A stretch of DNA of 63,992 nucleotides, filler included, from Basidiobolus ranarum (taxonomy: Eukaryota): assembly GCA_040143965.1 (NCBI GenBank). It is 10 parts of 10 records of this genome, joined end to end, with 100 filler letters (N's around TTAATTAATTAA, not from the genome) between each part and the next. Parts side by side here need not be neighbours in the genome. Positions count along the whole stretch, not along the records: positions 6,475 to 12,844 come from JASJQH010001335.1; 9 more parts are not named here. One strand, 5' to 3'. The position numbers and the translations under genes are program-made. Positions 4,192 to 58,026 of this stretch are shown here, piece after piece. The notes below the pieces were generated by a model, which did not search any database, was not told the origin of the DNA, and was given only the letters and a program-made list of their open reading frames with translations. Position 1 is the first letter of the stretch, and each line of letters opens with the position of its first letter.

Positions 4192-4875
4192 GATAGAAAT
4201 ATTTAGATATGTCCAATGAAACAGGGGAAAAACTATACAATAATGCTTCTAAGAGGCGGTTCTCGTTGAGAGGGTCAGAAGACATGGTGCTATTAAATAG
4301 AGCAATAACTCCTATTACAAACTCCTACCTACTGCTGTAGAGTGAGGGGATGAGGAGAGAAAGGAACTATTTCGGTGGGTTAAGGCAAAGGCAACAGGTT
4401 GGGGAAGTATAGAAGCAGGGTGGCTTGCTTCAACAGTTTCCCCTGCCTACCCTTTGATACCTCAAATATCTAGGGGTTCTCTGAGCTTATATATCCAACA
4501 TATTCACATGCAGGTTATGAATAGACCAGCATTTACTTGGTGTCCATTAGACTGTGCTTAGTGGAATGTACCAAAATCCAAATTTGATGACGTGACCAGT
4601 TTAGATGGCATTGTACATGTCATGATTGGACCTTATGTGCCCATTCGAATTAGATGTCACAACTAGTGTTTCTTTCTTATAATTGGAAAATCGATGATGA
4701 GTCGAGGTCGGATCCTCAAGTGGATCCCGATCAAAACAATCACTGAACGCAAAAAAAAACGACGAAAACATGTTCCAAGTATAAACAATGAACAATCTTA
4801 GAAAAGTATTGCAGCCACTACTTTCAGAACTCACCCTTCTAACACTGCTAACCTTCTGGCTTTAACCTTAACACT

Positions 4876-5610
4876 ATGAGAGAAATCGTACATCTTCAAA
4901 CTGGTCAGTGTGGTAACCAAATCGGTAACAAGTTCTGGGAGACTATCTCCTCTGAACATGGTATTGACGGTACTGGTAGCTACGAAGGTGACAATGACTT
5001 GCAACTTGAGAAAATCAACGTTTACTATAACGAAGCTGGTTCCGGCAAGTATGTTCCCCGTGCAGTGTTGGTTGATTTAGAACCTGGAACCATGGATACC
5101 ACCCGTGCCAGTGGTATTGGTGCTCTTTTCCGCCCCGATAACTTCATTTACGGTCAAAGTGGTGCTGGTAACAATTGGGCCAAGGGTCATTACACCGAAG
5201 GTGCTGAGCTTGTTGACAGTGTTATGGATGTTGTTCGTAAGGAAGCTGAAAACTGCGACTGTCTTCAAGGTTTCCAGATCACTCACTCCCTTGGTGGTGG
5301 TACTGGTTCCGGTATGGGAACTCTTCTCATCTCCAAGATCCGCGAAGAATACCCTGATCGTATGATGTGCACCTACTCTGTTATGCCTTCCCCCAAGGTT
5401 TCTGACACTGTTGTTGAACCTTATAACGCTACCCTCTCCGTTCATCAACTTGTTGAAAACTCTGACCTCACTTTCTGTATCGATAACGAAGCTCTTTACG
5501 ATATTTGCTTCCGTACCTTGAAACTCACAAACCCCACCTATGGTGATCTTAACCATTTGGTTTCACCTAATATGCATAAACTGTCATGCAGAATTCTGTC
5601 AAATGCATGA
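4876..5610 (+). pseudogene. TUB2: Beta-tubulin, intronless, homology ends at codon 230 (3'-truncated)
   Basis: [26 protein letters not shown] and YGDLNHLVS are present. After 5565 the frame reads unrelated [14 protein letters not shown] instead of the conserved AxMSGxTT..RFPGQLN. Confidence 0.8.
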
Positions 5611-6374: not shown

Positions 6375-6474
6375 NNNNNNNNNNNNNNNNNNNNNNNNNN
6401 NNNNNNNNNNNNNNNNNNTTAATTAATTAANNNNNNNNNNNNNNNNNNNNNNNNNNNNNNNNNNNNNNNNNNNN
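6375..6474. other. Artificial contig linker N44-TTAATTAATTAA-N44 (also 12845-12944, 19306-19405, 25761-25860, 32202-32301, 38637-38736, 45069-45168, 51499-51598, 57927-58026)
   Basis: Identical 100-bp spacers with stops in all six frames. Intervening contigs are 6370, 6361, 6355, 6341, 6335, 6332, 6330 and 6328 bp, i.e. size-sorted. Confidence 0.98.
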
Positions 6475-8535: not shown

Positions 8536-10250
8536 AAAGCCACTATAACTTGGTAGAAAGCCATATATATATATATGCTTTCTTCTGTTTTTATCATAAT
8601 TTGTACTTATGTGCTTATTTTGTGATTCAATTCCTAAAGATTAATTTTCCATCATTTGCGATATTGAGTGAAGAGGGAGATTTTCATCTCGGTTTATAAT
8701 TCCTAAAAATGAAGCATAATAACTTGATGAATACCAAATCGAATGTTTTCCTTGTTTTATACTTCAGTCACCATATAATAGAAGAGTGAGGCTTACCATC
8801 AGCTCTATCGTATACATAAATAAATTCCCTTATTACCTATATCTCTTGACTCCTGCAGTTTACGCGTCGAATAATTTTTATTTCTTTATTCGATATGCGG
8901 GTAAATTCTTAGCATGTTGAGGTTAATCGTATCCATCACTTCACACGAATTGCCATCCTATGTTCAGTGTAACTCTCCACATAATATGAGGTGAAGATGT
9001 GGACAGGCCGAAGGAAAAAGGGAATACAAACGAATTGGTATTTTATACTCATGACCACAGAGCAACGTTGTAAAAATCTACTTAAAAGTCAATACGTGTG
9101 TTCCTGACGCTGCTGGTTAAAACAAATCACATCTGCCCAATTTCGATCAGTTTGACCAAATACTGCATCTATAAAACTAGCGGGCGAGTTTAAGAAGTAT
9201 CGGATTCCAATAGGAGTAGAGCTATAATTTTCGGTTCTACTTATGTGATCTGACATGAGCTAGACTAAATCAGAAATGTGATCGAGTGAAGTAGAACATC
9301 TTTTCTTTTTATAGTAATCCTATACAAGTACTTTGAGATTCATCTGACTCACAGTAAACATAGTAGATCTATGATTATTTTAGTAACATCTCTTGGCATG
9401 AAAATTACCGACTTGTATTGATATTAAGGTATTTCACTAATATTACTCACGCCACTAAAGCCACTCTAATTGGAAAGAATGCGCCTGTCTTGCAATTATC
9501 CTGCTAACTTTCCTAAATGTAAGTTTCTGAATGCCAAAGTTTCGTCCTTTATTGATAAATAAAGCAAAAGCTCTACGTGGATTCCTAGTATTTTTGGCCC
9601 ATCAATTCTACTAGGCTTTGTGTTGTGGTATGTCGAGCAACGGCATCCCTATAAGCAATATAGCCCTTCTTCCTTAATGGTCCTGAACAGCTTTATCTTA
9701 TCGATAACCACGTCCGAGTAGTTGCTATCCCTCTTTTTGACATGACAATCTTCCCAACCTTGAGTAGAATGGGATGTCACCTTCATTCTATCCCACATAT
9801 TACCGTTCTATCGTTACTACTCTAGTCTTTTATCTCGTTATTTATCTTCACTTTCAAGTACATAGTACTGGGCACTATAGTTTCGCCCACTTCAGTGATT
9901 TGCTTGCACAACAAGATCCAGTTAAAAATATCTGCATCTGGTTGCAAAGCATTCTAATCATTCACTATATGAATATTCAGTAAACGATCGTAAAATTGAT
10001 ATATACATATATATAGCAAGTTTTATCCGGTCGTACTGTCTATATTAAGATTTTAGGTATATTTAGATATAGTAAATTTCCCAAATCTGATGATCAGATA
10101 ATAATCGGTATTGGACTTTCCGCTTCCCGGTTGTATATATATATGCAATAGTATTTAAAATTGACATCATTTTCAATTCCAAGATTCAAATACACATCTT
10201 TGAGCGGGAGATTTACTACCTTAATTATCTTATATAGTATTATATGAATT

Positions 10251-10374
10251 GGTCAGCCTCTTCGAGACCTCTGACGCGTCTTAAATTGGAATGATACATA
10301 GAAGAGTAGTTTGTCCCCTGCACAAGGATGACACGTAAAGTGTAGAGTGGACACCTCTCCAGAGGGTATTTTTT
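10251..10374 (+). ncRNA. U6 snRNA-like gene (divergent variant or pseudogene)
   Basis: 10283-10335 matches the conserved U6 core at 47/53 nt, including CCCCTGCACAAGGATGACACG. Has a 5' stem-loop (GTCAG...CTGAC), upstream TATA-like tract (10231-10244) and T6 terminator (10369-10374). Confidence 0.85.
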
Positions 10375-11110
10375 ATGGTTTCTTGACGTGTTGCTTGCCC
10401 TCTTAGCTAGATAAAAGACTCAACTATCGAACACATTTCGCAAGATCGGAAAGACACAAGTATTGTCTACAATGCAATAGTGATTCAATCTTAACTAGCT
10501 TAAAATATCTTGAATCTAGTTACAATCTGAATAACAGTTTGGTTAAATCCGAATTAGCATCAGATATATCTATTTTACTGTGTACGTGCCTATATATATA
10601 TGCTATTATATAAAACATCAGATAGTAAAGCAGAAATATCACCTAACGCATTAGATAGTCCTATTTTATTAAAAAGTGGGGAAGGTTTGCAGGATTTGCT
10701 TGGTAACAAAGCAGTATTGCTAAAATGACCATACATATTAGGAGAACATATAACCTATTAAATATCAAATAAGGATACTTGGTAGAATGGATTTTGTTTT
10801 TCATCGGTGGTGGGTGCTTTTGGTTTATCTGACATCGAACTCCGTCTACGTAACTAGAATATTCCTCATTCTTTACGAAGTTCTAATCTGATCAAATTAA
10901 CGCAAATCACCTGACTACAACGAGTGTCTAGCTACCCAAGCTTATCACTATTATGGGATTTACCCGGGATTTACTCATATGATACAACTGTCGATAATGG
11001 CCAGTTGAGCAAATGGTTATGGTGTGTATCGGAGGGGTGTGTATCAGTTTTCTTATCATTATGAATATAGCCAAACGTTTTAACTATCTTTATAGTCAGA
11101 AAACTACAAT

Positions 11111-11217
11111 TTAACCATCAGAAGAGTAAGCATCTCTACTACCCAACTTAACTATCAGAAGAGTAGACATCCTTACTACCCAACTTAGCCATCAGAAGAG
11201 CATATATTCCTACTACC
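11111..11217. repeat. 37-bp tandem repeat, about 2.9 copies
   Basis: Units TTAACCATCAGAAGAGTAAGCATCTCTACTACCCAAC / TTAACTATCAGAAGAGTAGACATCCTTACTACCCAAC / TTAGCCATCAGAAGAGCATATATTCCTACTACC. Confidence 0.85.
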
Positions 11218-11863
11218 AGGTGAATACATGTTTCAAGATCTTGTGTTATGAGGTTGTTCTAATTCTGGTAGGGCCTTTGTCAAAGTTCTGATACTAGTAA
11301 GGTCTTTATCCGAATTCTAATTCATCAAGAGACTAGGAACGTCTGGAATTCTAATATGATGAAGTGGAACCAATGAGTGCCATCAGCATCATTGAATGGG
11401 ATTAATAGTAGGCAAAGTGGAAAGGATAAAAATTACTACTTTCTGTAGCATTAAATATCTGCCATAATGACTACAAATACCTTCACTAATCTTGATATCT
11501 CAGCAGAAGCCTCCCCTGCTATGGGAATATTCTATATATATTCGAATAGCCAACAGTGCCACCAAGTTCCCTTTGATGTCGTAAGTAACTACTGGCATAT
11601 TAGTAGCCATTTAGTGAAAGGTGGTTGTTAAATGCTGTGAATGGATGATGAGTCTGTAAGAGTTCAATCTAAATCGTCTTATCATGACTAAAAAAGGAAA
11701 AAAGTGGACCGCACCGATATGAAAGTGCCACCTTTGCCTAGGCAATTGTTATCAATTGGAAGAATATAAGATGATAACGCTTTCTACTATGGCTATAAAT
11801 AATGCTTTTGCTCCGAGTTTCACCATTCACCTCACTGCTTTTGAAAGCCCATTGCTGATAGCC

Positions 11864-12844
11864 ATGTCTACTTGTGAGAATGCCAATGATAAGGCAACTT
11901 GGAGTGTGAAAAAGAGAATCTGGGATTCCCTTTGCTCACCAGGACGACAGTATGCCGTTCGAGCCGCTGCTCCAACCCAATCAGTAGTTATTGGCAAGTC
12001 AGAAGCTTCTGTTTTCGGGGAGTATTTGCCTGAAAGTATGACCATTTGCGAGAGCAAAAAAACTAAATCGATGGGTTCTCGCTTCTTTGACTCTTTCACA
12101 AGTTTTGCTGGATCACGATTCACCTTTGTGTCCACACTAGCTGTCTTACTTGGATGGGCTATAGCCGGTATTGTACTAGGAGCTCCGGCAAATTGGCAGA
12201 TTGCCATTCAGGATGGTGGCTCTATCCAATGTTATATCTCAGACTCACTCTTGATGCGTCAACAACATAATCAATGCAATAAGCTACTAACAATTATCGC
12301 CCAGCTACGTTCCAGAAATATAACATACAAAAGAATACTGCGCAATCCGCAAATAGTTCAGAAGATTCATGATTTGAAGATAAATCTTCAGAATCTTCAA
12401 ACACTGGAGGACAACATTGACGACGCAGTAAAATTACCTTTAGAAAACTGGTTTGACAAACTCTGCAATTGGGTCTCTCTTCTCGTTGGTTCCATCTATT
12501 CTATTGTGTTCTACTGGGTGGGTATATTCGTATGGATTGGTACAGGTCCCTCACTTCAATGGAGTAACATGTGGCAGCTCTATATTAACACTGCCTCGGC
12601 CATTCAACTCACTTTCTGTTCCATGTTCCTACAACACACCCGACGCATACATATGGAGTACTTCGAAAAGTGCCTCACTTCAGTTATGGAAGCTGACCGT
12701 GAGCTAGAAACTCTATTACGCCAGACAACCGGAGACAGCGAGCTCAATCCTATGATTGAGATTCAACCACTTAAGATTGGATCTGGTGTAAGAGCCATCG
12801 ATTACTACGCGGACCTCGTTGGCTCTGGAGTCGGTGCATTCATT
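11864..12844 (+). CDS. FET4: Low-affinity iron/zinc permease (Fet4 family), 3' partial
   Basis: Repeated Iron_permease units: FD..TSFAGS, WQIAIQDGGSIQCYISDSLLMRQQ, WQLYINTA, AIDYYADLVGS. Likely ATG at 11864. Runs into the linker. Confidence 0.85.
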
Positions 12845-13458
12845 NNNNNNNNNNNNNNNNNNNNNNNNNNNNNNNNNNNNNNNNNNNNTTAATTAATTAA
12901 NNNNNNNNNNNNNNNNNNNNNNNNNNNNNNNNNNNNNNNNNNNNAATAGCTTAAATCAACGTGTTGAAGGAATTGGCAGAACACTTACCTCAACAAAAAT
13001 AGGTATTCGTCACAACAAAAACGCCTTAATCGGACTAAGTAGGGCAGCAGCTGGACTCAATCGACAAGTAGCCTCCTTGGAAGATAGAATAGATGGATTA
13101 GAGACTGATCAGGATGATGAACATAGCAGTGGAGGATTTGGTTCTACTCGTTCACGTTATCGTAATAAGCATTCGGGGGCGTACTGAAGAGAATCTAATA
13201 GAGTTCATATCATATGTTGACGTTTCGAAGATTTTATTTTTAGCTTCATATTATTACACTAACAACATTCTTTCGGCTTTGCTTCTGTGCTATTTGATTC
13301 TTATAAACTCGATGGAGAATAAAAGACTGAGCATCTATTTGGATGGGCGTACAATAATTCTTCGGTTAGAGAGTGACTTCCTTTATCAATTATGCTTGCC
13401 ATTGAATTATTTTGGAATGTTTACTTTGTATGCAATCGGAAATATTGTCAGATGGGAT

Positions 13459-15309: not shown

Positions 15310-17160
15310 TTAATTCGATCTTTTCTGCTGGTCAATCCTTCGTTTGATATCGGTGTGTTCCAATGCTAACCATTCATCTACCTCACGAACAAGATCGTTC
15401 ATTTTGGCAAGCTTCAATTGCGTTTGCAAAGTACTAATGGTTTTCATTGATGGTCGAGTTTTCATTTCTTTAGTGAGAACCCTAGTGGCTTCCGAATACT
15501 GGCCAAAACTACAGAGAGCGTGCAAGTATGAACCGTATACATTATCATCTATTGGGTATTTCTGATTCATTTCCTTCCAAGTAGTCTGGAGGTCTTCAAG
15601 ACTCGAATTGTACCTTATTGAGTCCAGCAGAACTGATATGTGAGGGGAGACCAAAGAAACATGGGATTTACATGCTGAGATTGCTTCCCATAGCTCGCGC
15701 ACTTTTAGATGGTTCCCAAGTCGACTGTAAGAATCCATCAAAATCGTATACATAGGCAGGTCTGGCTCAATATTACGCTTACGCATTTGCTCGTAAAATT
15801 CCAATCCTTTTTGAACTTGTCCATTTTTGATATATCCATCCATCATTAGATTGTAGATCTCAAGGTTGTATTCTAAACCAAGGTTTGGGATCGACTTGAA
15901 TAGATCTTCGGCTTCTGGTAACTTCCCTGAAAGTTTATATGCCTTAATGAGAGCCCCTACGACCGGAATATCCGGTTGGACTTTACAAGAAATCATATCG
16001 TCATAAATCTGACGTGCTCCTTCTGGATCAAAGCATTCAGCATGTGCATTTATTAGCTTCGTGAACAAAGACTTGGTCGGTATGATATCGGTTTGCTTCA
16101 TTTCCTTATAGCAGGACATGGCTTTCTCCAAGTTCAAGTCGTCCAGCAAAGCAGAAATAAACGTGGTCCAAGTGAAGAGATTTGGTTGAATGCCATTAGC
16201 CAGCATTTGAAAGAATACTTCTTCAGCCATATTCAAACGCTTACGCTTTACGAATGCCTGTAAAAGAGTTGTGTAAGTAATTACATTGGGACTCACTCCT
16301 CGCTCTAGCATTGTCCGATAAAGCTGGGTCGCTTTCCGTAGGTTGCCATGTTTGGAATAAGCGTGAATTAAAGTGGAGTAAGTGAAAACATCCGGGAAAA
16401 CATTGGCTTTGATCATCTCTTTAAAAAACTCTTCAACTTTGTCCAGTTTTCTCACTTTGGCATTCGCGTCAATTAAGCTATTATAAATCTTTAGATCGGG
16501 CGTGAACCCTTCGGATAGCATCTCATCATAGATTCGGTTTAAGTAATCCAAATCTTTATGTATCTTACACACCTTGAGTAATATATTGTAGGTCTTGATA
16601 TCTCTTGGTATATCGTGTTCTCTCATAAATTCTAGCATACTGTAAGCTTCTCGAGGTCCTTGTTTTCGTAAGGTATTGATAATCAAGTTGCAAGCGAATG
16701 TGTCAGGCTTCAAGTTTTTCTCCAACATATCTTCCAACACCAACCGAACCTTTTCGTAAGGTTCACACAACCCCAACACGGATAATACTGGGGTAAATTC
16801 TTGGAGAGTATAAAACTCTGCTTTCACACGACTAATGGAGGCGAGGATTTCTTGACATTTAGAGAGGTCAGGCTCTATCCCGCTAACACTTTTGTTAAAA
16901 GTACGAAGTAGTTTCGGCCATAGTTTCGAAGGCATATTTTCTTCCTCTCCAGCTTCTACTATCGTTTTGAATAGCTCCCACGTCTCAGCATTGTCATTCT
17001 TGTTCAAACTCCAAGTTAAACGATCTACTAAACTCACTTGACGTGGAAGTGAAATCCCTTTTTTGGTTGCGAAAAGACGTTTGGTATCAAATGAATTTTT
17101 GTAAGGGAATCTTAGAGGTAACTGTCTGGCTACCTTGAAACTTTGGACAAAACCAAACAT
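15310..17160 (-). CDS. Pentatricopeptide repeat (P-type PPR) protein, probably mitochondrial, 616 aa
   Basis: Tandem 35-aa repeats (PDVFTYSTLIHAYSKHG, PNVITYTTLLQAF, PDLPMYTILMDSY). Basic, acid-poor N-terminal presequence. Confidence 0.92.
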   Translation of the reverse strand: MFGFVQSFKVARQLPLRFPYKNSFDTKRLFATKKGISLPRQVSLVDRLTWSLNKNDNAETWELFKTIVEAGEEENMPSKLWPKLLRTFNKSVSGIEPDLSKCQEILASISRVKAEFYTLQEFTPVLSVLGLCEPYEKVRLVLEDMLEKNLKPDTFACNLIINTLRKQGPREAYSMLEFMREHDIPRDIKTYNILLKVCKIHKDLDYLNRIYDEMLSEGFTPDLKIYNSLIDANAKVRKLDKVEEFFKEMIKANVFPDVFTYSTLIHAYSKHGNLRKATQLYRTMLERGVSPNVITYTTLLQAFVKRKRLNMAEEVFFQMLANGIQPNLFTWTTFISALLDDLNLEKAMSCYKEMKQTDIIPTKSLFTKLINAHAECFDPEGARQIYDDMISCKVQPDIPVVGALIKAYKLSGKLPEAEDLFKSIPNLGLEYNLEIYNLMMDGYIKNGQVQKGLEFYEQMRKRNIEPDLPMYTILMDSYSRLGNHLKVRELWEAISACKSHVSLVSPHISVLLDSIRYNSSLEDLQTTWKEMNQKYPIDDNVYGSYLHALCSFGQYSEATRVLTKEMKTRPSMKTISTLQTQLKLAKMNDLVREVDEWLALEHTDIKRRIDQQKRSN

Positions 17161-17733
17161 GGCAAGGACTGATTAGGTAGTATAAAAAACCAAGATATAG
17201 TGGGCAGATATCAAGGACAGTGAAATATTGATAGCCACCAAATTTTTGAAAGTATTACACCCTAAAAGAAAAGAAAATTTTTGATATATATTTGCAAACC
17301 GAAATATACGAGCTTATGTAATAATTTTCTCTTCGATGTTTACTGTGAATACACATATAACAAAAAATGGAGTCAGAACATGGAGATTTTATTGAAACTC
17401 CTAGTCACGGTCCATTGGTCTTCTTGGGGCTTGATAGCTATCTCTCTGGCAGTATGTCCATTAGATATATTACCATTGATTTTTCTATTAGCCTTGATTA
17501 TTTATTCAGACCATTTGTATACTACAAGATTGGAATGCAACGAAAGTATTAGAAAAAGAATAAACAGCCAACTCAAAACTCTTTTCTATCTAGGAACCAT
17601 TGATTGTGTGTGGCTAACGTGTGTCGTGGCATTTTCTTCTGATAACTTGGTGGTAATGAGAAATATATAATAGATTACATAGGTGTATTTTGATAGATAT
17701 CTACTCCGACAAATTTGAAACGTATTAATAAAA

Positions 17734-19305: not shown

Positions 19306-20780
19306 NNNNNNNNNNNNNNNNNNNNNNNNNNNNNNNNNNNNNNNNNNNNTTAATTAATTAANNNNNNNNNNNNNNNNNNNNNNNNNNNNNNNNNNNNNNN
19401 NNNNNAATCAATTCGAAATGCAAAAGAGTATTGATGGATATTTTAATCGCTTCACCTAGCTTGTTAAAAAATCTTGAAGAGGAGCAATATTACTACTTTC
19501 ATTTTCCTATGGACATTTATATTGAGGGTAGCTATCTTGACTTTTACTTGGATCTTCTAAAAGATAATCATGAGAGTTGACAATGTCCGGAATAAACTTT
19601 AGCGAGGCTTCACCTATGATCCTAGATCCCAAGACATGAACTTTCTCTGTTGTATATGTGGTTTTCTTCACAAATAAACTCCCTAGAATGATAGGTAGTT
19701 ACTCGTTCCAAATACGAAGTTTTGTCCGCAAATGTATTTCCTCCATTGCAACTATTATTTCTTTACTCTTGAAGAGAATCCACCAAGTTATCCAAAAACT
19801 TCACCAAACAGGACCTCAAGAGAACTATTCACGCAGTTCCGAAGAGCGGGCATATTAACAACTATGAATATGACTAGATATTGTTGATTTCAAATAGGTG
19901 CTCTTGTACAAACCACCACTTTTTTTTGACGACTAGATGGCTACTTTTATTATTTTCAGTGTCAATCAGCCGCTGAAACCATACGTACATCATCCTAATC
20001 TATGTTTTTGATAGTATCAGGCTAGTTGACATATGGCTGAGATTCAACCACTGAGTCTCTGTTTCGACTTACTGAATGAAGTATACGTGATCTCGTACTT
20101 CATTATGGAGTTCGCTTATCTTGACTCGTCACCTGATATTCCAATGGAATATATTTCTTAACCAAATAAATAGGTAAACTTGTATAATAATCAGCAGTGA
20201 CATAGCCGCAGTCAGATGACATATTTCACGCTGTCAAGGTTTACAATAAACGTGCGTAGGAGTAGCACAATACAATCCAAACCAATAACCCTAACCCTAA
20301 TCCTGGCCCCACCAAGTAGCATTCAAAGGTATCTGATTCTCAGAATGGTGGATCGAGTAACTCTAACAGAGAGGGCGCAGTCTATATGCGCTTAAACTTT
20401 GTTAGCGTGGTGTCTTTTCCCAGCCAATAACCACATTGCTTACACAAATAAGTGATGGGAAAGCGACATATACAATGGGATTTAATATTCGATTGTCTGG
20501 TTCCAAGTTGAGCCTGATTGAGCTTGTTTCAACAATTTAACTTTTTTGCCCTTCAATGATGACACAACTCTACTATTTGTTTCTGTTGATCTGTTACCTA
20601 GGGAGATGGGTTTTGGGTGCGCATTCAATCTATCAATACGTTGCTCATTGGGTCATACCACTGTGATACACAGCCAATGACTATGTAGGCTTATGGAGGG
20701 AGTTTGCGGATAAATAGTGGGGAGTAAACTTAAGTGAGGGCGTTTGAAATACCTTTTACTTTTTCGTCGACTCGGAGTAT

Positions 20781-49586: not shown

Positions 49587-51166
49587 ATGTCCCCCAAAAA
49601 GACTGATCAAACCGTAGCCGAGAAGCAACAGCAAGGTGACTTCCTTATTAAGCCCACCAACACTGTTCCTGCTCTCGATACCTCCAAGTGGCCATTGTTG
49701 TTGAAGGTATTGTCGCTATCTTTATTAATATGAATTTCCGAGTGCTAAATCATCTTCATCTATTCTAATTGACTGATCTAGAACTACGACAAACTCAACG
49801 TCAGAACTGGTCACTATACTCCTATCCCTAATGGTTGCTCTCCTTTGAAGCGTGAATTACGCGAGTACATCAGGTAACTACTTTGTTTCATATTTTTCTT
49901 CAAGATCTCTGGCTAACGCATATATATAGATATGGTGTTATCAATCTTGATAAGCCAGCCAACCCTTCTTCCCACGAAGTTGTTGCTTGGATTAGAAGAA
50001 TTCTTCGTTGTGACAAGACTGGTCACAGTGGTACTCTCGATCCTAAGGTTACCGGTTGTTTGATTGTTTGCATTGACAGAGCTACCCGTTTGGTCAAGTC
50101 TCAACAAGGTGCTGGTAAAGAGTACGTTTGCGTTCTTCGTCTTCACGATGCTGTCGATGATGAGAAGAAGGTTACTCAAGCCATTGAGACCTTAACTGGT
50201 TCTCTATTCCAAAGACCTCCTCTTATATCTGCTGTCAAGCGTCAATTACGTATTCGTACCGTTTACGAGTCCAAGCTTTTCGAGTTTGATAACGACAGAC
50301 ATTTGGGTGTCTTCTGGGCCAGTTGCGAAGCTGGTACTTACATGAGAACCTTGTGTGTCCATCTTGGTTTACTCCTTGGTGTTGGTGGTCATATGCAAGA
50401 ACTTCGTCGTGTTCGTTCCGGTGCTCTCTCAGAAAACGAGGGTATGGTTACCATGCACGATGTCTTGGATGCCCAATGGGTATATGACAACACTAAAGAT
50501 GAGACCTATCTCCGTCGTGTGATCCGTCCTCTTGAAATGCTTCTTGTCTCATACAAGCGTATTGTCATCAAGGACAGTGCTGTCAACGCTATCTGCTATG
50601 GTGCCAAGGTTATGGTTCCTGGTTTACTTCGTTATGAATCTGGTATTGAGGTCGGAGAGGAAGTCGTTCTTATGACCACCAAGGGTGAGGCTATTGCCTT
50701 AGGTATTGCCATGATGACTACCGCTGTTATGGCTACTTGCGATCACGGTGTTGTTGCCAAGATCAAGAGAGTTGTCATGGAGCGTGATACTTATCCTCGC
50801 AAGTGGGGATTAGGTCCTAAGGCTCTTGAGAAGAAGAAGATGATCAAGGAGGGTAAACTCGATAAATATGGTCGTGCTAACGAACAAACTCCTAGCTCAT
50901 GGAAGGGCTCCTATGTCGACTATAATGACAGTGAAGCCGCCGCTGCCGCTACTCCCTCCACCCCTGCTGCTCCTATTACCCCTGTCGCTCAAAAGACTAT
51001 TGTAGAGGAGATGAAGGTTGAGACCCCTGTTGAAGAGCCTAAGAAGAGAAAGGCCGAAAGCAGTGATTCTGAAGAGGAAAAGAAGGAGAAGAAGAAGGAA
51101 AAGAAGGAGAAAAAGGACAAGAAAGAGAAGAAGGAGAAGAAATCTAAGAAGTCCAAGTCTGAGTAA
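49587..51166 (+). CDS. CBF5: H/ACA pseudouridine synthase Cbf5/dyskerin (introns about 49707-49781 and 49874-49929)
   Basis: [39 protein letters not shown] domain, KKE-rich tail. Confidence 0.98.
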
Positions 51167-56716: not shown

Positions 56717-58026
56717 CAACCTTTACCGTCAGGAATCCGGTGGATACGATTTCTTTGAAAGAGCATTATTTATATGTTGATCCTTGTAGCTCCAAGATCT
56801 AAATGGAATACTATCAAGTACCTTTCTATGTCGCATCAATATACCTTTCTCTTTCAGCTGAACGGCGCTCTGAGCCTATAACGGAGATTGATGAGCGAAA
56901 TTTTGTCATGCCAATATCAAACCATCCAATGACTTACTCAATAAGCTGCTGGCGAACTGTCAACATTGTGAGCTTGACATCCCATTAGTAGATTGATACT
57001 TGGATCCAACAACCAGCCCCACTTTACAAGTGGAGTAATAAAGAGTAATTAGAAAGATCGCCCTCTGATAGTGGCCCATATTATCGTCGACTAGTCCGGT
57101 CCATCACAGCCAAAAACAATGCCTTCACATAGGATTAGGAGCTAGCCACTTTACTGCGACTGCGTTGATCAATCCTAAAATATAAGGAGAAGGAAGGTTC
57201 ATCGGCATATGTCTATGGTAATTATATTCCAATACTCAAGTGAAACTTAACAGGGGGACCATCTCTACTAACACCTGACCTTTCTAGACTTGTTATTAAA
57301 TTCTGAGATCCCGAGGTACTTCACCTGATACTCAACCCCGTTTATCCACTCAGGAATGATGAGGTTTTACCTTGGATTCATATAGCCTTTCAGGACATAG
57401 TCCACATCCATAAATAGGTAACGGCAGCATGCCAGGTTTGGTACCTTGATCTACAACAATAAACAGTCGTTCTAAAATGGGTTGAACAAATGGAACCCTC
57501 AACACCTCACATTCATAATTGATCTCTACTCTTCCTCATGGCCACCTAGTTCATCTCCATGTATTCAATTTAAGATTGCAAGTTACTCCACTTACGTGGC
57601 AACAACTATTCCACTGGGTGAATTTTAGATTGCTTTATGTGTAAAATATGATCACTTTGTTTCTTTTGAGAAAGAACCACAATTCTTGAATATTGTATAA
57701 TATCATGGGTGGGTATCAGACTACATTCTATCGTCGTGAAGTCCTGGTGAGCTTGAAAACCCAACATTTATTAACGGGTATATAATAACATGACTGACAA
57801 GGATATATATGTATAATATGAACAAGGTGACTCTTTTCAATGGGGGTTTTGTTGGCAAGGAAAACCTAGTTTCTATGTATGCATGAGATATATGGGTGAA
57901 GGGAGTCTGTAGCGCTTTGGACATTTNNNNNNNNNNNNNNNNNNNNNNNNNNNNNNNNNNNNNNNNNNNNTTAATTAATTAANNNNNNNNNNNNNNNNNN
58001 NNNNNNNNNNNNNNNNNNNNNNNNNN

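Follow-up and report, generated by a model that had tools for sequence, protein, structure and literature searches.

A U6-derived gene unit with altered ACAGAGA box and AGC triad in Basidiobolus ranarum, probably a paralog under relaxed constraint or a pseudogene

The ACAGAGA box and the AGC triad of U6 snRNA are among the most conserved RNA elements of eukaryotes, and a U6-like gene in which both are altered raises the question of whether it serves the spliceosome or is a side-lined copy. Such a sequence lies at positions 10231-10374, plus strand, of a 63,992-nucleotide stretch of Basidiobolus ranarum DNA, the whole of which was analyzed here and is referred to as the window. A first-pass annotation had described it as a divergent U6 unit with altered box and triad, a description borne out by the sequence itself and by the Rfam U6 model RF00026, which matched 10252-10362 (+) at 50.7 bits (E 8.8e-10, model positions 1-105). 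With the gathering score of this model set at 44 bits, the match is full length and above threshold, a property that the copy shares with canonical U6 together with the 5' stem-loop, the 3' strand GGAUGACACG, a terminator-like T run and an internal stem-loop (ISL) that has both a bulge and a pentaloop. The U6-core string quoted in the annotation is present at 10283-10335; the RF00026 alignment places no indels in this core, and a degenerate pattern of the U6 core, its box set to T at the changed position, hit the window once and 100 shuffles not at all. When Rfam models were run with permissive filters, no other family was detected in the 64-kb window at the gathering score or at E values up to 1, U2 and U4 included at the latter limit, and ARAGORN detected no tRNA genes there. 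U6atac (RF00619) was rejected as the identity of this RNA, as the annotation had also held, with U6 outranking the other models of clan CL00009 there and being the only one reported after clan competition. The box of the window copy also differs from the U6atac box. What the two have in common is membership of the same clan and a U6-like RNA with a 3' stem-loop, which is described as characteristic of U6atac in passages of PMC11347168. The locus is a genuine U6-derived gene unit.

The unit sits in an ORF-poor stretch of about 4 kb, with a beta-tubulin gene (4852-5610 and onward, Pfam Tubulin) on one side in the window and, on the other, a gene (11756-12844) that encodes a low-affinity iron permease domain. 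There was no sign that it lies inside a repeat, the local repeats being short AT-rich motifs only. Among these surroundings, the motif TATATATATATGC(A/T) occurs three times in the intergenic region (8566-8579, 10134-10161 and 10591-10618), with the U6-like gene flanked by one copy about 100 nt upstream and another about 220 nt downstream. A 37-nt unit is repeated three times in tandem at 11107-11217, between the U6-like and iron-permease genes, with 78-84% identity to its first copy. Farther along the window, a 620-amino-acid intron-free frame on the minus strand (15310-17172) encodes a pentatricopeptide-repeat protein (PPR_2, E 7e-71), and a Cbf5/dyskerin gene at 49587-51166 is interrupted close to its 5' end by two short introns, whose 5' splice sites read GTATTG and GTAACT. 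The DNA is fungal: the Cbf5 frame at 49856-51166 was 99% identical by tblastn to a database protein named Basidiobolus ranarum, the next-best matches, from Mortierellomycotina and Zoopagomycota, having 83-86% identity. Paired 44-base N blocks recur about every 6.4 kb (6375-6474, 12845-12944, 19306-19405, and so on to 57927-58026; 18 blocks, 792 N) and break up a number of reading frames, the iron permease and Nog1-like ORFs among them; their appearance suggests intentional masking rather than assembly gaps.

The signals that flank the U6 match resemble those of an RNA polymerase III (Pol III) gene. A TATATA tract at 10231-10236 (+), a candidate Pol III TATA element, begins 21 nt upstream of where the U6 alignment starts, and a Pol III terminator-like run of six Ts (T6) lies at 10369-10374 (+), so that both the TATA-like tract and the T6 terminator named in the annotation are present. 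TATAWA at -35 to -15 is expected at 6.5% of local AT-rich intergenic positions, and T6 within 15 nt downstream at 0.8% of local intergenic positions. T6 is also the sole T run of at least four in 10201-10500. The TATA element of U6 genes is usually found at about -30, and the tract of the window copy is thus closer, at -21. No B-box with up to two mismatches was found on the plus strand at 10375-11955; window-wide, such matches numbered 78 against 79 expected, and the nearest one falls inside the 5' stem-loop (10259-10269) and is uninformative. Marks of retroposition were not seen at the locus, neither a poly-A tail nor a target-site duplication being read in the sequence. Taken together, the flanking signals indicate that DNA-level copying took in a whole gene-like unit rather than a piece of one. 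The CpG content adds nothing to this. CpGs had been said to be retained here, unlike in decayed repeats, yet 4 are present in the unit where 6.3 would be expected, and the resulting ratio, 0.63, is also that of the whole window; the argument from CpG retention is therefore without weight.

The predicted RNA, 123 nt to the end of T6, retains the U6 outline in its folds. A 5' stem-loop GUCAG...CUGAC with a 5-bp stem, at 10252-10275 (+), is placed by the Rfam alignment and folds at -5.8 kcal/mol (z -1.1). The ISL, UGUC-C-CCU-GCACA-AGG-AU-GACA at 10312-10333 (+), when folded alone adopts ((((.(((.....)))..)))) at -5.8 kcal/mol with UGUC/GACA fully paired, the predicted fold having the bulged U and pentaloop of a functional U6 (z -0.76). 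The earlier statements that the ISL still folds and that the change at 10314 closes a G/A mismatch as U-A both agree with this fold. A hairpin at 10354-10365 (+), CCUC-UCCA-GAGG, lies outside the conserved U6 model and distinguishes the window copy from canonical U6; it folds, as does the 5' hairpin, in line with the annotation (z +0.37). None of the 5' hairpin, ISL and 3' hairpin folded better than dinucleotide shuffles (z -1.1, -0.8 and +0.4, respectively), and neither did the whole 123-nt RNA (z -0.11). None of this is surprising for a U6, and for the ISL it is to be expected of a helix this short.

The core is where the copy departs from U6. Compared to the consensus line of RF00026, the core at 10283-10335 carries seven differences, all read on the plus strand: C>U at 10292; G>U at 10299, by which the canonical ACAGAGA box (10296-10302) becomes ACAUAGA; U>G at 10306, by which canonical GAUU becomes GAGU in the segment of U2/U6 helix Ia and U4/U6 stem I; C>U at 10310, by which the canonical AGC triad (10308-10310) becomes AGU; A>U at 10311; G>U at 10314; and G>A at 10322, by which the loop GCGCA becomes GCACA. 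Six differences had been counted before, and the change at 10322 is the one added. In the Rfam alignment and in the comparison with canonical cores described below, GAGUAGUU at 10304-10311 (+) replaces GAUUAGCA. Not all of these changes carry the same meaning. A GCACA loop occurs in some fungal U6 RNAs, and yeast U6 likewise departs from the consensus around the stretch 10311-10314; on this basis, the truly fixed positions that are changed are 10299, 10306, 10310 and perhaps 10292. The earlier claim that the 3' 21 nt are perfect accordingly stands if GCACA is accepted as a normal loop, and otherwise shrinks to 13 nt. Neither the ACAGAGA box nor the AGC triad of a functional U6 is found, the copy reading ACAUAGA at 10296-10302 and AGU at 10308-10310, and two defining features of a working U6 are therefore missing. 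In the established pairing schemes, the G at 10306 lies opposite an A in both partners, that of the GAUC segment in U2 and one within stem I in U4. The U>G change at this position should weaken pairing, as it would break a central pair in both the U2 and the U4 helices unless U2 and U4 co-vary. The pairing roles of the 10304-10311 segment are covered in part by passages of PMC6294511.

Could the altered bases simply be assembly or sequencing errors in a canonical U6 gene? Seven substitutions and zero indels in 31 nt of ordinary composition would be an unusual error pattern, and neighboring genes read cleanly, with the Cbf5 frame almost identical to its database counterpart; we regard such an artefact as extremely unlikely.

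The annotation had taken the clustering of the changes as an argument for a specialised paralog. In simulations with uniform placement, six changes within 23 of 53 nt gave p = 0.039 and seven changes within 31 of 53 nt gave p = 0.10, and this clustering is suggestive at most because the span was chosen after data inspection. The argument is thus a weak one.

For comparison with canonical U6, a degenerate core pattern with the box fixed and the other changed positions free was run on genome_contigs, where it gave 12 matches in 11 loci. All 12 matches read GATTAGCATGG and GCGCA at the free positions and all 12 have the AGC triad, whereas the window copy differs from them at five free positions. 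The loci are eukaryotic contigs binned into prokaryotic MAGs. Two of them (L007 and L015) lie on one contig of a MAG labelled Woeseiaceae, and eight (L005, L007, L008, L010, L011, L012, L014 and L015) are small-RNA clusters with U1, U2, U4, U5, U6, 5S rRNA, SRP RNA, U3 and tRNAs; the presence of such clusters in prokaryotic MAG contigs is eukaryotic bin contamination. RF00026 scored 13 canonical-core U6 matches in 11 loci, none of these fungal, at 93.1-117.9 bits. The window U6 stands 42-67 bits below these 13 genes, a gap measured against a non-fungal calibration set. Since lower scores may be usual for U6 genes of fungi, lineage divergence in the 5' and 3' parts may account for some of this gap. 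No match to the canonical core pattern was found in viral_contigs, and the ACAUAGA-type core pattern had no match in either genome_contigs or viral_contigs.

In metagenome_contigs, ACAUAGA-type U6 was found at four loci (L001-L004), a count that stands without a canonical count there as denominator. All four pass RF00026 at 68.4-77.4 bits. L002 (5489-5590, -) and L004 (3830-3931, +) also read AGU, and thereby combine the box G>U and AGC>AGU changes just as the window copy does, while L003 (2125-2226, +) has a GCCCA loop. Over 3.1 kb, L002 and L004 show no difference, and L003 represents this locus in a relative. A comparison of L002 with L003 gave 3 differences in 102 sites of the U6 part and 27 in 2874 aligned sites of the flanks; the U6 part thus diverges faster than its flanks and is not conserved above background. 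L002, L003 and L004 have no T run and an altered 5' stem, and L001 is a U6 core only, within unrelated AT-rich sequence. From these features, the four loci look like pseudogenes. Because L002 and L004 also carry AGU, the ACAUAGA and AGU pair arises in copies whose rate of change is not below that of the sequence around them. The window copy, in contrast to L001-L004, keeps the terminator, the 5' stem-loop and the TATA-like tract.

Probes drawn from the window copy itself gave no relatives. The 28-nt lineage-specific 3' half of its U6 had no match in genome_contigs or viral_contigs, and a spurious 41-amino-acid minus-strand ORF across the U6, used as a paralog probe, yielded no candidate. A 59-amino-acid minus-strand frame searched against 1.84 billion representatives had one match (P0121), a 1186-amino-acid repetitive protein; as it matches only the part of the frame that comes from the U6 3' tail and downstream flank, it was dismissed as a chance match.

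On this evidence, we favor a paralog under relaxed constraint or a pseudogene, standing beside canonical copies elsewhere in the genome, and put the probability of this reading at roughly 65%. In its support are the low RF00026 score, the non-canonical free positions, the mispairing at 10306, the pseudogene-like character of L001-L004, the multi-copy nature of fungal U6, the marginal clustering and the ordinary CpG content. Passages of PMC5855946 quote Canzler 2016 for up to 20 U6 copies, with a mean of 2.3, in 145 fungal genomes, and give more than 900 copies for human U6, most of them pseudogenes; like such U6 pseudogenes and variants, the window copy has point changes at otherwise fixed positions. 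Against relaxed constraint stand the intact unit, with its T6 (0.8% by chance), TATATA (6.5%), paired ISL and a core free of indels, the possibility that two of the changes are tolerable singly, and the location of every change in the core's 5' half (p about 0.04).

A rival explanation, which we consider unlikely, is an expressed and selected U6 paralog with a re-tuned core, transcribed by Pol III, bound by Lsm proteins and acting in some spliceosomes or as a decoy. In such a paralog, the U of ACAUAGA could pair with A at intron position +3, and the stem I/helix I segment could pair with matching U2 and U4 variants or shift activation kinetics. In favor of this explanation, the gene-like architecture is intact and no change falls outside the core's 5' half (p 0.039-0.10). 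Some tolerance is also on record: according to passages of PMC5855946, the yeast U6-G50U mutant is a growing strain with altered U28 pseudouridylation, which implies that yeast can grow with precisely the box change of the window copy, and according to passages of PMC6294511, splicing in vitro can proceed without the pairing of U6-C61 to U2, U6 with an abasic C61 still supporting 31% splicing. Growth of G50U and the dispensable pairing of C61 together suggest that, taken one by one, two of the three striking substitutions may be tolerated. For the third, passages of PMC5855946 and PMC6294511 contained no report on a change equivalent to 10306, and among the literature matches listed for ACAUAGA none was related. 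An expressed human U6 variant with nine substitutions, one deletion and an internal promoter (Tichelaar et al., cited in passages of PMC5855946) provides a precedent, for it too is a diverged paralog of U6 that has remained a transcription unit, as the window copy appears to have done; for the human variant expression has been shown, and for the window copy it is putative. Both cbf5 introns have A at +3, with which the U at 10299 could pair. To our knowledge, A at this position is the norm in all eukaryotes, so its presence in the cbf5 introns does not discriminate. The 5' splice-site hexamers exceeded expectation by 1.33x for GTAAGT, 1.18x for GTGAGT and 1.16x for GTATGT, with no striking signal. 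Opposed to an expressed, selected paralog are the U>G change at 10306, which would break pairing with canonical U2 and U4, the occurrence of the ACAUAGA and AGU pair in sequences that evolve no slower than their flanks, and the low RF00026 score.

A more specific proposal is that of a second expressed major-type U6 in which the ACAUAGA box, the helix I/stem I segment and the AGU triad have co-evolved with variant U2 and U4. We hold this to be quite improbable; if true, the fungus whose repertoire of minor introns is the richest would have a separate subtype of spliceosome, or else a U6 decoy with a regulatory role. Passages from two articles, PMC11347168 among them, describe a minor spliceosome and an unusual splicing repertoire in Basidiobolus. 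In those of PMC11347168, only a U4atac candidate, a divergent one, is reported for it, and the supplementary tables of that article list snRNA gene calls for Basidiobolus meristosporus that may be relevant to U6 copy number; passages from the Basidiobolus snRNA literature contained no description of a Basidiobolus U6. The unusual repertoire leaves room for an expressed variant and has no direct bearing on this locus.

That the variant is the main or only U6 of the organism, so that Basidiobolus would splice with an altered catalytic core, appears highly improbable. The unit is complete and is the sole U6 in the 64-kb window, yet the window is a tiny fraction of the genome, and the absence of a second U6 copy from it therefore means nothing. 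The free positions are invariant in 12 of 12 sampled canonical-core sequences, and the AGC triad is called invariant in the review literature, as seen in passages of PMC5855946, among them the title of Hilliker and Staley 2004, cited there. With the ACAGAGA box, helix Ia and the triad all hit at once, U2, U4 and possibly Prp8 would further have had to co-evolve.

The preferred reading, a relaxed paralog or pseudogene, can be put as follows. In a Basidiobolus-like fungus, a U6 snRNA gene would have been duplicated at the DNA level to give this locus, which kept the outline of a Pol III gene, with its TATA-like upstream tract, 5' stem-loop, ISL and T6. The duplicate would also have gained substitutions at fixed positions, namely G>U in the ACAGAGA box, U>G in helix Ia/stem I and C>U in the AGC triad. 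It would now be a pseudogene, or at most a weakly transcribed variant, and not the catalytic U6 of the cell, splicing presumably being performed by canonical U6 copies elsewhere in the genome. We infer both the existence of these canonical copies and the disuse of the variant; the term paralog rests on base rates, because no canonical U6 from the same genome was seen. The first-pass annotation had offered a young pseudogene or a specialised paralog: the U6-derived unit at the base of both stands, whereas its two arguments for a specialised paralog, clustering and CpG retention, proved weak.

The locus is a further case of variant U6 copies or U6 pseudogenes, and its interest is modest unless the variant is shared, conserved or expressed. 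If the copy is a decaying or side-lined duplicate, it would be what snRNA gene duplication ordinarily leaves behind in a large fungal genome rich in duplicates, and a warning that U6 matches passing Rfam are not all functional genes. If, on the other hand, it is functional with both box and triad altered, it would bear directly on how far the catalytic core of the spliceosome can vary.
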